DNA of 64,000 nt from Candidatus Woesearchaeota archaeon. GTDB taxonomy: Archaea; Nanobdellota; Nanobdellia; Pacearchaeales; GW2011-AR1. The notes under the pieces were generated by a model. It was given only the letters and a program-made list of their open reading frames with translations. It was not told the DNA's origin and did not search any database. Positions 24,317 to 61,714 of this stretch are shown here, piece after piece. Location of the stretch: NCBI GenBank assembly GCA_964514585.1, contig CAZETU010000003.1, positions 64,001-128,000 on the forward strand, given 5' to 3'. The position numbers and the translations under genes were made by a program. The first letter of the stretch is position 1. Each line of letters starts with the position of its first letter.

Positions 24317-24440
24317 ACGCCCCAACCGGAGTCGAGACCTTTTTGGCATCTCTTAGGGACTGCGTTTAAATATCGAATATTTTTATTTATTGTTGAATTA
24401 GTGACGCTGTTGAACTTTTTAAGTATTGTCGAGGTTGAGT
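24317..24440 (+). repeat. Core-plus-arm element type I, copy 1 (core ACGCCCCAACCG at 24317-24328)
   Basis: Starts 1 bp after the pyrCDK stop; 24402-24440 matches 33075-33113 at 37/39 nt. Confidence 0.8.
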
Positions 24441-24482
24441 GGACCGACAAGATTTATATATATTGAAGATTATCAATATGTT

Positions 24483-24941
24483 ATGAAACATAAATATATG
24501 ATTGGGGGCGTGGGAATTATAATATTACTACTTATTGTTTTTACAGTGCCCAAATATTTTGCGACGGCTGAGACCATTAATGGGAAGGTTGTCTTTGGAG
24601 AGATTAAAAAAGTTGAAATATACCATTTTCATGCGAATAGACAATGTTATTCATGTAAGACTATTGGAGAATACGCAAAAGAAACAGTAAATATTCACTT
24701 CAAAGAAGAACTTGATTCTAAAATAATAATTTTTGATTCAATAAATATAGATCTCCCGGAGAATAAAGAACTTGCAAGCAAATACGAAGCAAAGGGTTCT
24801 TCGTTGATTATTGGAACCTATTACAAGGATGGGAGCTTTTCAAAAGAAGAGGATACAGCAGTGTGGTACAAAATTGATAATAAAGAAAACTTTGTCTCTT
24901 ATCTGAAGGGAGTAATTGAAACAAAGTTTGTTGAGGCATAA
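24483..24941 (+). CDS. ArsF-like thioredoxin-fold exported protein
   Basis: N-terminal TM; YHFHANRQCYSC motif; the ORF-track start 24426 lies in the repeat/promoter region. Confidence 0.65.
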   Translation: MKHKYMIGGVGIIILLLIVFTVPKYFATAETINGKVVFGEIKKVEIYHFHANRQCYSCKTIGEYAKETVNIHFKEELDSKIIIFDSINIDLPENKELASKYEAKGSSLIIGTYYKDGSFSKEEDTAVWYKIDNKENFVSYLKGVIETKFVEA

Positions 24942-25653
24942 AATGAGCTTGATGGCTTTCATGGGGTCCATGTCTGGAAGTAGTTTTCCATTAATTGCCG
25001 CATTTTTTATTGGGTTAATGACGGCTATAAGTCCTTGCCCCTTGGCGTCCAATATAACAGCTATAGCATATATTTCTAAAAAGATAGATAATGGGAAAAA
25101 GACATTAATCACCGGATTCATATATACCCTTGGAAGAATGTTTACATACGTTCTTTTGGCAGGTTTAATTGTTTATATTGGCGTTAATGTAACATTAATC
25201 TCTTTATTTTTACAAAAGTATGGAGAAAGAATTCTAGGTCCCGCGTTAATTTTTATCGGCCTAATAATGTTGAACATAATTAAATTACCAACCTTCAAAA
25301 CAAGTGACAAAATTAATAAAATAAAGGAGAATCTTTCAGAAAAAGGATATCTTGGTGGTTTTTTACTAGGTGTCTTCTTTGCTCTTGCCTTTTGTCCTTT
25401 TAGCGCAGTTCTGTTTTTTGGCATGTTAATACCTCTTGCAATTAACTACTCTGACGCTTTCTTAATTCCATCAATCTTTTCCATAGCAACCGGTCTCCCA
25501 GTAATTATTTTTTCTTTCATACTAACATTTAGTGTTTCAAAGGTAGGGAAAGTTATGAACAAAGTTCAAGTATTTGAGAAAGGAATGAGGTATGTTGTTG
25601 CAATATTATTTGTAATTATTGGAGGATATTATGTTATCAATGTTTGGTTATAG
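24916..25653 (+). CDS. ArsG/CcdA-like multi-pass membrane protein (likely start 24943)
   Basis: GLMTAISPCPLASNITA, ALAFCPFSAVLFFG. Confidence 0.75.
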   Translation: MKQSLLRHKMSLMAFMGSMSGSSFPLIAAFFIGLMTAISPCPLASNITAIAYISKKIDNGKKTLITGFIYTLGRMFTYVLLAGLIVYIGVNVTLISLFLQKYGERILGPALIFIGLIMLNIIKLPTFKTSDKINKIKENLSEKGYLGGFLLGVFFALAFCPFSAVLFFGMLIPLAINYSDAFLIPSIFSIATGLPVIIFSFILTFSVSKVGKVMNKVQVFEKGMRYVVAILFVIIGGYYVINVWL

Positions 25654-25674
25654 TTAAATTAGGAGAGAAACAAA

Positions 25675-25905
25675 ATGGAGATAAAAATACTTGGAACTGG
25701 ATGCCCAAATTGTGTTACTTTAGAAAAAAATGCAAAAACAGCATTGAAAGAACTTGGAATTGACGCAAGACTAAAGAAAGTGACCGACATAGTGAAGATT
25801 ATGGAATACGGAGTTATGTCTACACCGGCAATTGTTGTTGATGAAGAGGTTAAGGCTTATGGAAAAGTCTGCACCGTTGATGAAATAAAGAAATTGCTGA
25901 GTTAA
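25675..25905 (+). CDS. Small redox-active disulfide protein (MTH895/thioredoxin family)
   Basis: IKILGTGCPNC, YGVMSTPAIVVD. Confidence 0.88.
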   Translation: MEIKILGTGCPNCVTLEKNAKTALKELGIDARLKKVTDIVKIMEYGVMSTPAIVVDEEVKAYGKVCTVDEIKKLLS

Positions 25906-25987
25906 GATGAGCGATTTTTTTATCTATTTCAATTTTTATTAAATGAAAGAGAAAGAGTTTTGTTTAATGTGGAAGTGAGTAATAGGA

Positions 25988-60097: not shown

Positions 60098-60158
60098 AAA
60101 AGATTTAGGGCTAAGTAGCTTATAAAATTATTTATAAACTATCAAATCATATCTTATT

Positions 60159-60404
60159 ATGATACTAGGAATAATCGGACTTATTTTAATTGCAGTTGCA
60201 TGGCTTCCACAAATAATCGAAACAATTAAAACTAAGAAAAGTGGATTAAACATTAAATTTGCATTAATTTATGTCATCGGCTCTTTCGTATTAGTAATCT
60301 ATTCAGTTCAGATAAAAGATACGGTTTTCTTAATACTAAACTCTCTTGCAACACTTATGAGTTTTACAGGATTGTTTTATACAATCAAGTATCAAAAGAA
60401 ATAG
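60159..60404 (+). CDS. PQ-loop/SemiSWEET-like small membrane protein
   Basis: AWLPQIIETIKTKKS; three TMs. Confidence 0.75.
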   Translation: MILGIIGLILIAVAWLPQIIETIKTKKSGLNIKFALIYVIGSFVLVIYSVQIKDTVFLILNSLATLMSFTGLFYTIKYQKK

Positions 60405-60418
60405 GTGCTTGGAATTGT

Positions 60419-61585
60419 TCAACTAACAACCCCTTCAATCTGACTAGCTAATTTTTCAAATTTAGCCATATTTATTTCCATTAATTCCATTCTTTCTTGC
60501 AAGATTTCATTTTGTCTTTTTGTTGAATTCAACTCTTTTTCTAATTCTGTTTTAGTCGTGTCTATTAGCATATCCTCTTCTGAAATCGTATCCCTCATTC
60601 CTAATAGTTCGCTGTAATAATGTATTTTATCGCTTTTTTTCCAACCGAATCTATATTTAAGAGCTGATTCACTTTTATAACGAGGCATCCAATAGCAACA
60701 AGCACAATGCCTAAAATCATACATGGTTAGATTGCAGTACTTTTCTCCTGCAGGAGAAACTCCTTCTCCAAAAAGTTTCCTAGCTGTGTTTTTTATAACT
60801 CTATTTACATTATATGGCTTAAATGTAAATAAATAATCATGAAGCTCCAGTTTTTCTTCCCTAATATATCGTTTGATTAGGTCAGAAGATAACATTAACT
60901 TTATTCTTCTACCAAAAGTTTTACTTATCTCATCTCTTATGTGAACTTCCTTAAAGTCGTTATGAAGGTCTGAAATTTTAATATTAATTAATTCGGTCGG
61001 GGCTCTAATTCCAGTATCAAACAAAAACATAATCATCGTCCTATATTTGAAAGTGGATTTATCGCAAAAACTTCTAACCTGATCTTCTGTTAAATATACC
61101 CATTTTGGTTTATCCCGTCTAACGTCTAAATCGATTGTGATATCTTCAACGGTGACACCTTCTTTTCTATTCACTTTAATCCACCAATGCCAAAATGATT
61201 TGAAGGCTTTCCCATAAGTGTCTATTGAGGCATAGATTTTACCATCTTCCCTAGAGACTTCCCCTGTTCTAATTTTGGAAAAGAATACTATGATTTGATC
61301 CTCAGTTATTTTGGTAATATCATCAAGTCCAAATTCATCTTTAAACCTTTTAGAGAAAAATATCATTTTTTGTCTCAATGTGTTCAATCTAATAAAACTT
61401 CTCGGACCTTTTGAACTTCTTGAAGAAACATTTCTCCCGACCTCCATGTCTCCGACATATCTTAAAGTTAAATCAGAATTTACTTTACTAATCCCTGGAA
61501 CGCCGTCTTTTACTGCTATTTTCCAAGCATGGTATTTTTCCTTGTGTTTGTATGGATCTCTTTTCATTGTCTGAAAAGCAAACAC
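60419..61585 (-). CDS. Tyrosine recombinase/integrase 2 (likely start ATG 61567)
   Basis: LFDTGIRAPTELINIK, MYDFRH, RFGW, HYYS; shares NDFKEVHIRDEISKTFGRRIKLM with integrase 1. Confidence 0.88.
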   Translation of the reverse strand: MFAFQTMKRDPYKHKEKYHAWKIAVKDGVPGISKVNSDLTLRYVGDMEVGRNVSSRSSKGPRSFIRLNTLRQKMIFFSKRFKDEFGLDDITKITEDQIIVFFSKIRTGEVSREDGKIYASIDTYGKAFKSFWHWWIKVNRKEGVTVEDITIDLDVRRDKPKWVYLTEDQVRSFCDKSTFKYRTMIMFLFDTGIRAPTELINIKISDLHNDFKEVHIRDEISKTFGRRIKLMLSSDLIKRYIREEKLELHDYLFTFKPYNVNRVIKNTARKLFGEGVSPAGEKYCNLTMYDFRHCACCYWMPRYKSESALKYRFGWKKSDKIHYYSELLGMRDTISEEDMLIDTTKTELEKELNSTKRQNEILQERMELMEINMAKFEKLASQIEGVVS

Positions 61586-61702
61586 TATTTATTAACATCG
61601 AGGTTTTGCACAGGTACCTTATGGGTATCTTACAGGTGTCGTTTAGAAGTCAGAGTTTTGTTTTTCCGCTTGAAAGCTCATCGATTATGCTCCAAGTGGG
61701 TT

Positions 61703-61714
61703 ACGCCCCAACCG
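61703..61714 (+). repeat. Exact core ACGCCCCAACCG, 136 bp upstream of the integrase 2 ATG
   Basis: Seen directly; left flank GTGGGTT resembles the right ends of type II/III arms. Confidence 0.8.

Follow-up and report, generated by a model that had tools for sequence, protein, structure and literature searches.

From position 24317 to its right end, the archaeal DNA analyzed here (64,000 nucleotides, hereafter the window; positions 64,001 to 128,000 of contig CAZETU010000003.1 of a Candidatus Woesearchaeota archaeon) very probably belongs to a tandem accretion array anchored at a tRNA-Asp(GUC) gene, in which units resembling integrative and conjugative elements (ICE-like units), small units with an integrase, and units without an integrase are stacked. 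The distal part of this array (24317-64000) was assigned by identity to a sister assembly. The units are separated by a 12-bp core, which corresponds to the 3' end of tRNA-Asp. What the analysis adds is a unit-specific register of inverted arms, detected in a set of 63 units, and the exchange of cassettes between arrays at different tRNA genes. A preliminary description of the window had proposed a non-canonical integron-like system. An integron-like outcome without canonical attC sites is retained here, but the integrases ride on the units, and accretion at tRNA genes is a described process.

The core and its tRNA-Asp anchor

A scan for the core with up to two mismatches gave eight matches in the window, compared with a mean of 0.85 in shuffled sequences (maximum four; none of 100 shuffles reached eight). 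All copies are on the plus strand, and none (≤2 mismatches) was found on the minus strand of the window. The scan thus agrees with the preliminary description on the five exact copies, on the variants at 30222, 30908, and 42204, and on the single polarity. The sites are as follows; strands are given where a feature has one.

24317-24328, plus: exact Asp core (motif scan); right arm of a family found on the tRNA-Gly element
30222-30233, plus: Asp core variant, 1 mismatch; distal end of the 686-bp unit, flank family D14
30908-30919, plus: Asp core variant, 1 mismatch; distal end of the 904-bp NYN unit
31812-31823, plus: exact Asp core; distal end of the 903-bp RelE/AbrB unit
32715-32726, plus: exact Asp core (motif scan)
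32990-33001, plus: exact tRNA-Tyr 3'-end core, 12/12 to the tRNA-Tyr end at C2:201371-201382
35928-35939, plus: exact Asp core; left flank also joined to tRNA-Asp in genome G007
39026-39037, plus: degenerate Asp core, 3 mismatches, inner 7 bp intact
42204-42215, plus: Asp core variant, 2 mismatches; distal end of the 19.5-kb ICE-like unit, flank family D3
61703-61714, plus: exact Asp core; left flank also joined to tRNA-Asp in locus L002

The site at 39026, previously grouped with the variants, has three mismatches and is probably a real junction, because its right flank (D14) is shared with 30222. The supposed degenerate copy at 32992 is really the exact tRNA-Tyr 3' end at 32990, whose right arm is of the Tyr-element type (19/29 positions to the Tyr element on contig C2, 23/29 to the tRNA-Tyr arm of G063). 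The second degenerate candidate, 44491, was discarded; it sits within a 41-codon open reading frame (ORF) similar to CopG/ribbon-helix-helix proteins (44485-44610) and is probably a chance match, so that the description of all sites as intergenic did not hold. Neither is the motif confined to the island, since this genome (G000, 1.04 Mb in 18 contigs) contains nine exact copies, which are found in this array, on C3 at 20.9 kb (19-22 kb), on C9, and on C1. The core at 24317 begins 2 bp past the stop codon of a pyrimidine-synthesis fusion gene (889-aa ORF, 21646-24315, with a dihydroorotase start followed by a PyrD-like segment); its right arm matches the proximal arm of the Gly element at 23/29 positions, and it is probably a secondary or old site. 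Two lone cores with one arm each, located away from the tRNA arrays of G000 (C1:202873 and C5:13401), are probable secondary integration sites or remnants. The 263 bp between an Asp and the Tyr core (32727-32989) form a gene-poor spacer, whose right end is similar to the promoter end of the NYN unit (D15); a comparable spacer of 196 bp separates Tyr from Asp cores at C3:21866-22062.

The core is the reverse complement of nucleotides 63-73 of tRNA-Asp(GUC) plus the next base (T). The integrase of L002 is 87% identical to integrase 2 of the window, and the core there runs into the rest of the tRNA-Asp(GUC) gene; in at least 15 genomes of the same genus, the core likewise forms the tRNA-Asp 3' end. 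The exact core was found in 29 of 36 genomes of the genus versus 1 of 24 others, while a reversed control pattern gave one match. Of 22 further cores on contigs that include tRNA-Asp, 20 are located 3' of this gene and in its polarity. The two cores of L070 (G018:C14:3379 and 7889) are inverted relative to the tRNA-Asp of the same contig, which suggests an inversion between arms or cores.

ARAGORN predicted no tRNA in the window, and a relaxed run over the whole genome yielded noise. In G000, an assembly gap interrupts the tRNA-Asp gene and leaves 14 nt of it at the C6 start. A sister assembly with 100% identity to the C3 end and the C6 start was walked to recover the intact gene, which was found on the minus strand, approximately 25.7 kb to the right of the 61703 core and ending in an exact core (L287:10359-10430). 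This corresponds to positions ~87,430-87,505 of the window numbering, outside the window, and gives the array a length of approximately 63 kb from tRNA-Asp to 24317. The cores share the polarity of the tRNA because they are displaced copies of its 3' end. The core was earlier taken as the crossover site of the integrase family; it does mark the crossover region, but as a displaced tRNA-Asp end and not as a new site. An unrelated tyrosine recombinase of 367 aa is carried by an element of several kb located 5' of tRNA-Asp (L301:8885-16262 and L302-L305). This element is circularly permuted in other contigs, was indexed in 28 blocks, and is possibly a free plasmid or a tandem repeat.

Integrases, units, and exchange between arrays

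Three family integrases are present in this array, namely the two listed below and a third, tRNA-proximal one, which starts 47 bp past tRNA-Asp in the sister assembly.

34707-35834, plus: integrase 1, 375 aa, tail facing the proximal core; grouped with the clade of the ~2.7-kb minimal units
60419-61567, minus: integrase 2, 382 aa (Pfam Phage_integrase, 3e-10), starting 136 bp inside the proximal end
32519-32626, minus: N-terminal remnant of a family integrase, 35 codons (tblastn 50% over 34 aa; gene call)

Remeasured distances between genes and cores are identical to those reported before (94 bp after integrase 1, 136 bp before the ATG of integrase 2, and 89 bp before the remnant). Integrase 2 matches at least 2,302 clusters, with R188, K216, R286/H287, W309, and Y317/Y318 invariant. 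Its predicted model (pLDDT, the predicted local distance difference test score, 82) comprises core-binding and catalytic domains and a C-terminal helix of 44 residues; a separate N-terminal arm-binding domain is not present in it. The best-matching folds are those of the Tn1549 Int, Cre-type, and XerA recombinases (13-19% identity), none of which is clearly ahead. The closest relatives occur mostly in Pacearchaeota, Nanoarchaeota, and Woesearchaeota assemblies, and members of the family start at the ends of tRNA-Asp, -Glu, -Tyr, or -Gly. Relatives of a Gly-linked integrase, with 82% and 77% identity, occur at tRNA-Glu and tRNA-Gly, and the clade of this integrase also includes a member on an Asp-bounded unit; the underlying tree is a quick version with unreliable long branches. 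Close integrases filed under bacteria (L001, P0002, and P0105; Omnitrophota with 91-92% and Bacteroidota with 59% identity) reflect either mis-binned contigs or cross-domain transfer. The literature search, which mostly did not reach subscription journals, turned up no publication dealing with this integrase family or with arrays of this kind in Pacearchaeota.

Between the cores of the window, four units are of particular relevance.

30222-30908: single membrane-protein unit, 686 bp, without integrase or transfer genes
30908-31812: NYN unit, 904 bp, without integrase or transfer genes
31812-32715: RelE/AbrB unit, 903 bp, arms matched at 22/29 positions
42204-61703: unit of 19.5 kb with both an integrase and a VirB4 mating module, and thus ICE-like

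The first three have attachment (att) sites at both ends and lack integrase and transfer genes, as is characteristic of cis-mobilizable elements (CIMEs). The same applies to 48 of the 63 distinct Asp-bounded core-to-core units sampled in the genus, which are integrase-less with a median length of about 1.7 kb; 13 units carry a full integrase and two a remnant. The same build is seen on long contigs of G015, G025, G012, G031, G027, and others. Units of 16-35 kb carry an integrase, and those mapped add genes for pilin-, VirB6-, and VirB4-like proteins, methylases, and restriction enzymes, whereas units of about 2.7 kb consist of an integrase and one or two cargo genes. One 2.7-kb unit is 90% identical from core to core in G018 and G065. 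The 903-bp RelE/AbrB unit is an integrase element with an internal deletion, and the DNA of its integrase remnant is 82% like the start of the tRNA-proximal integrase in G015.

When 127 junctions were compared, one and the same proximal flank was found joined at the core to varying partners, including the tRNA itself. The left flank of 35928 adjoins tRNA-Asp in G007 (43/60 identical positions on the left versus 15/60 on the right, ungapped), and that of 61703 adjoins tRNA-Asp in L002 and three other right flanks in L004, L021, and L033. Between species, left and right flanks were identical at 54/60 versus 30/60 positions (gapped). Hence, breakpoints between species map to the att core, as expected of tRNA-targeted elements. 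A pattern scan of metagenomes was too permissive, with only about 8 of 117 loci relevant. In G063, three tRNA-Tyr cores delimit an NYN unit (1020 bp) and a RelE/AbrB unit (761 bp), which follow each other as they do in the window, and the RelE/AbrB genes form an 88% nucleotide-identical block directly behind tRNA-Tyr. The boundaries are therefore kept while the core follows the target tRNA. Asp cores were also detected inside the tRNA-Tyr and tRNA-Glu arrays of this genome, and a Tyr core inside the Asp array. The earlier proposal that the island was built by repeated integration is supported by unit ends that swap neighbors at the core and by the prevalence of small, integrase-less units.

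Two differences between contigs of the region were noted. Sister assemblies (L271 and L272, past position 17400) differ by a piece about 5.3 kb long, which is located to the right of the window (C3 ~139.4-144.7 kb). This piece encodes proteins of 165 aa and 1213 aa, the latter a TSP3 protein, along with the remnant of a resolvase; it has similar resolvase-gene sequence at both ends, and is a live polymorphism in the array, away from any tRNA core. In L264 and L265, an 18-bp deletion relative to G000 lies near 17.9 kb (window ~42.6 kb), in the small-peptide region to the right of 42204.

Inverted arms, mechanism, and alternatives

For every unit, the proximal inner flank was compared with the reverse complement of the distal inner flank over 29 positions. 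Complementarity within units averaged 12.0/29, compared with 8.9 ± 0.36 after permutation (0 of 20,000), and appeared only at register +5, in which position k is paired with k+5. The permutation value overstates the certainty, because related genomes are not independent. The signal was also obtained with the integrase-less units alone (11.1 versus 8.9) and without the commonest arm family (10.6 versus 8.4). In 10 units, the unit's own far end was the single best match among 63 (about one expected), and such matches between otherwise unrelated arm sequences are stronger evidence than the permutation value. Matched, imperfect arms of about 26 bp were found in 20 of the 63 units. In the window, they are those of the RelE/AbrB unit.

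31844-31861, plus: distal arm, perfect 18-bp inverted repeat of 32682-32699
32682-32699, plus: proximal arm, 22/29 complementary in the +5 register

The RelE/AbrB-unit arm also matches 30908. The same register occurs in the tRNA-Glu (19/29) and tRNA-Tyr (21/29) elements of G000; a distal partner arm for the tRNA-Gly element was not found. Neither the arm-plus-core pattern nor the family integrase profile had a match in the viral contig collection.

The register places the arms 8 bp on either side of the inner 7 bp of the core (tRNA nucleotides 63-69). From this geometry, we infer a 7-bp crossover overlap at the T-stem/acceptor junction. Terminal inverted repeats enclosed by 12-bp target-site duplications, as in transposon- or casposon-like units, could likewise produce inverted arms within direct repeats and a core that changes with the target tRNA. 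This explanation is very improbable: the arms are asymmetric to the repeat (3 versus 8 bp) yet symmetric about the inner 7 bp, and the only enzyme consistently linked to the units is a tyrosine recombinase with conserved catalytic residues. A transposon-type target duplication was rejected on these grounds.

Arms of different units are alike at only 11.5/29 positions on average, and most arm positions use two to four base-pair types while staying complementary within the unit. These properties would also suit structure-coded cassettes, a convergent integron in which the arms pair, for example in transferred single-stranded DNA, as a hairpin or cruciform with the core in a 23-nt loop and the fold is read instead of the sequence. 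The reconstructed junction of the 903-bp unit does fold at about -27 kcal/mol, and the integrase model lacks an N-terminal arm-binding domain. We consider such a system unlikely, and the same holds for its corollary that a single integrase could mobilize whatever cassette has self-complementary ends. G-T wobble pairs show no strand bias (27 versus 30), and the arm matches are concentrated at k = 4-6, 10-19, and 22-29, three patches spaced by roughly a helical turn, as for protein contacts on duplex DNA. Binding of protein to the duplex is thus likelier than an attC-like hairpin. Moreover, the similarity of arms is higher for close integrases (21.5/29 at >85% integrase identity, 11.5/29 at 55-60%), which fits sequence-specific binding or simple descent.

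In the mechanism proposed for the tRNA-Asp array, a DPANN tyrosine recombinase of about 380 aa would recombine a circular unit with the tRNA gene's 3' end. The incoming unit would supply the last bases, restoring the tRNA and pushing the 12-bp copy of its end to the far side, as the identity, polarity, and position of the cores indicate. Further rounds of integration, whether at the tRNA or at older junctions, would stack the units by an established mechanism. Each intact unit would have two inverted arms of about 26 bp, 8 bp on either side of the 7-bp overlap, for which the statistics above speak; these most likely act as binding sites in double-stranded form and allow matched ends to be excised together. 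The large units (16-35 kb) bring the integrase and, in those mapped, also the pilin/VirB6/PrgI-VirB4 module. Small integrase-less units keep their att ends and may be moved in trans or along with neighbors, as the comparisons between genomes suggest, and units also pass among the arrays at tRNA-Asp, -Tyr, -Glu, and -Gly.

Several observations weigh against this interpretation. The homologous RelE/AbrB unit of G063 has different arms; cargo is therefore also re-framed by other recombination. The core variants with one mismatch do not clearly avoid the 7-bp overlap, some "units" may rest on chance cores, and the genomes compared are related. In 43 of the 63 units, the arms are unmatched, and in the window only the adjacent-core unit 31812-32715 has matched ones. 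Since only 20 units are matched, many units may be immobile remnants or hybrids. Finally, the array is unchanged across about 35 contigs of sister assemblies of this organism, and neither an excised circle nor an empty site was seen in these contigs.

Unmatched arms and a constant array would also be expected if tandem autonomous elements merely shrink by ordinary decay to CIME-like remnants, which are moved only in cis by their neighbors. The integrase remnant in the 903-bp unit fits this explanation, and the same process has been described for streptococcal tandems of CIMEs together with integrative and mobilizable elements (IMEs; PMC5704250). Decay is a genuine possibility. It accounts less well for 11 integrase-less units with matched arms, some of them as short as 0.8-1.5 kb and immediately adjacent to the tRNA (G045), or for one-gene Fic, NYN, and RelA/SpoT units that recur in many genomes. 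In addition, three short-read contigs, from three runs, end exactly at 35927 and one at 35956; the assembly graph hence branches at the 35928 core.

Cargo and relation to known systems

Profile scans identified the following cargo and transfer genes.

31128-31688, minus: NYN-domain nuclease (Pfam NYN, 3e-17; PADLOC HEC-09, 2e-23)
31990-32565: ParE/RelE-like toxin (plus) and convergent AbrB/MazE-like antitoxin (minus), profile search
33435-34514, plus: RelA/SpoT-domain protein, candidate defense family PDC-S33; 87% nucleotide-identical single-gene unit in G063:C15
35983-37084, minus: HEPN and nucleotidyltransferase (MNT) pair, profile search
45534-50992, plus: minimal transfer module with pilin-like, exported, predicted VirB6-like, and PrgI-VirB4 fusion proteins (Pfam, NCBIfam)

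The transfer module was recognized by NCBIfam conju_CD1110 (326.8 bits, cut-off 325), by a pilin-like match (7e-6), and by Pfam PrgI and TraG P-loop domains. A relaxase or coupling protein had no family match among the window proteins scanned, which included only part of the small ORFs. Further cargo comprises beta-helix, MT-A70, and restriction-modification genes, and several cargo proteins match candidate defense families of PADLOC. The gene blocks previously assigned to the cassettes were thus largely recovered, including PrgI-VirB4, with two exceptions: the 454-aa "ApeA-like" protein had no match in Pfam, NCBIfam, or PADLOC scans, and the chaperone interval 24317-30222 is not established as a cassette. 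This interval encodes a thioredoxin-like protein, DsbD, and grpE-dnaK-dnaJ; its arms are unmatched (5/29), and its GC content (35.4%) is near that of the host flank (36.8%; island, 31.5%), for which reasons it was rejected as a proven cassette. The grpE-dnaK-dnaJ genes (26557-30158) are single-copy here and patchy in the genus (28 of 49 genomes), were not found in one 100%-complete genome of the genus, and a second dnaK in G069 adjoins Asp cores. Paralogous DUF2779 (Cas4-like) genes at 58619-60097 and C3:127262-128746 share 74% DNA identity and are inverted around the 61703 core; DUF2779 genes recur in most large units mapped. Across the genus, recurrent cargo includes a Fic protein (seven units), HEPN/MNT, NYN, and RelA/SpoT proteins.

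A second motif (B motif) was found at 31014-31025 on the minus strand, with more copies at 24421-24432, 31914-31925, 32802-32813, 33094-33105, and 42291-42302. It resembles an archaeal promoter (B recognition element plus TATA box) pointing at the core, and is presumed to act as one. Nine of its 10 matches in the genome are in arrays or at a Glu-unit end. It lies about 90-105 bp inside distal ends, aimed across the core into the next unit, or, in other units, about 45 bp inside the proximal end and aimed at the core. In the circular form of a unit, it could be the promoter at the junction that drives the integrase. Rfam gave no match in the window; a reading of the arm modules as small RNAs is therefore without family support.

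Such promoter-like motifs aimed across cores, together with polarized sites, many one-gene units, and defense and toxin-antitoxin cargo, are reminiscent of a true integron with platform integrase, attI, and attC cassettes. Nevertheless, this is extremely unlikely. With the IntI model TIGR02249, the scores were 21.5 and 23.3 bits (cut-off, 265), and the IntI structure 2a3v ranked 18th, no better than Cre or XerA. The attC pattern RYYYAAC...GTTRRRY was present at 0 of 10 junctions on either strand (pattern match), as had been noted before. There is no single platform, because full integrases are carried by 13 of 63 units, three of the integrases being in this array; the genes of the small integrase-less units face both ways (62 versus 49), and the core is a tRNA end. 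Membership of the integrons was rejected on these four counts of IntI score, attC pattern, platform integrase, and gene orientation. Archaeal integrons have IntI and/or canonical attC (10.1101/2022.02.06.479319). The present array shares with them a polarized series of small, often one-gene defense or toxin cassettes between recombination sites, but it has no IntI, attC, or single platform, its genes face both ways, and it is anchored at a tRNA.

The array has the features of tRNA-targeted islands (PMC4383910, PMC6563490), namely a tyrosine integrase at the element end and a co-oriented displaced 3' tRNA fragment downstream. The Islander survey describes class J crossover at the T-stem/acceptor junction (PMC4383910), and tyrosine-recombinase elements of archaea and bacteria form arrays by re-use of one att site (PMC6563490). 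As in the Thaumarchaeota elements (att 8-26 bp, PMC6563490), the att site here is very short. Islander contained only four tandems of at least three members; only members with their own integrase were counted and units below 2 kb rejected (PMC4383910). In contrast, at least 10 junctions are found in one array here, about three quarters of the units are integrase-less, and there are unit-specific inverted arms of about 26 bp. Streptococcal ICE/IME/CIME accretion (PMC5704250) is similar in that ICE-like units are stacked with integrase-less units bounded by attL and attR, with chimeric junctions. It differs in that the host here is an archaeon, the units are smaller and more numerous, cores of different tRNAs are mixed, and no relaxase family match was obtained among the window proteins scanned. 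The tycheposons of Prochlorococcus (10.1101/2020.12.28.424599) likewise form a tRNA-seeded directional island with partial tRNA copies between elements and integrase fragments left behind. Their integrases are specific to one island and tRNA, with an att site of about 40 nt, whereas here a close clade uses tRNA-Gly, -Glu, and -Asp, the core has 12 bp, and large units carry a VirB4 module. The system therefore belongs with the tRNA-targeted arrays and is integron-like in outcome, not an integron. More tentatively, and on balance rather doubtfully, it may be regarded as an independently evolved DPANN equivalent of the integron, with tRNA 3' ends as platforms, private self-complementary arm pairs read as structure or as matched address, and integrase-less defense cassettes shuttled among tRNA-Asp, -Tyr, -Glu, and -Gly arrays by one integrase family.

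The array explains how defense, toxin-antitoxin, and surface genes are gained and swapped in DPANN genomes of about 1 Mb, and the 12-bp tRNA end together with arms in the +5 register provides a rule for delimiting units to the base. A tyrosine recombinase that tolerates widely varied arms and, at about 80% identity, switches its tRNA target offers an easy test case of the evolution of att specificity. If small units indeed move in trans by their matched ends, the system would be a convergent integron.

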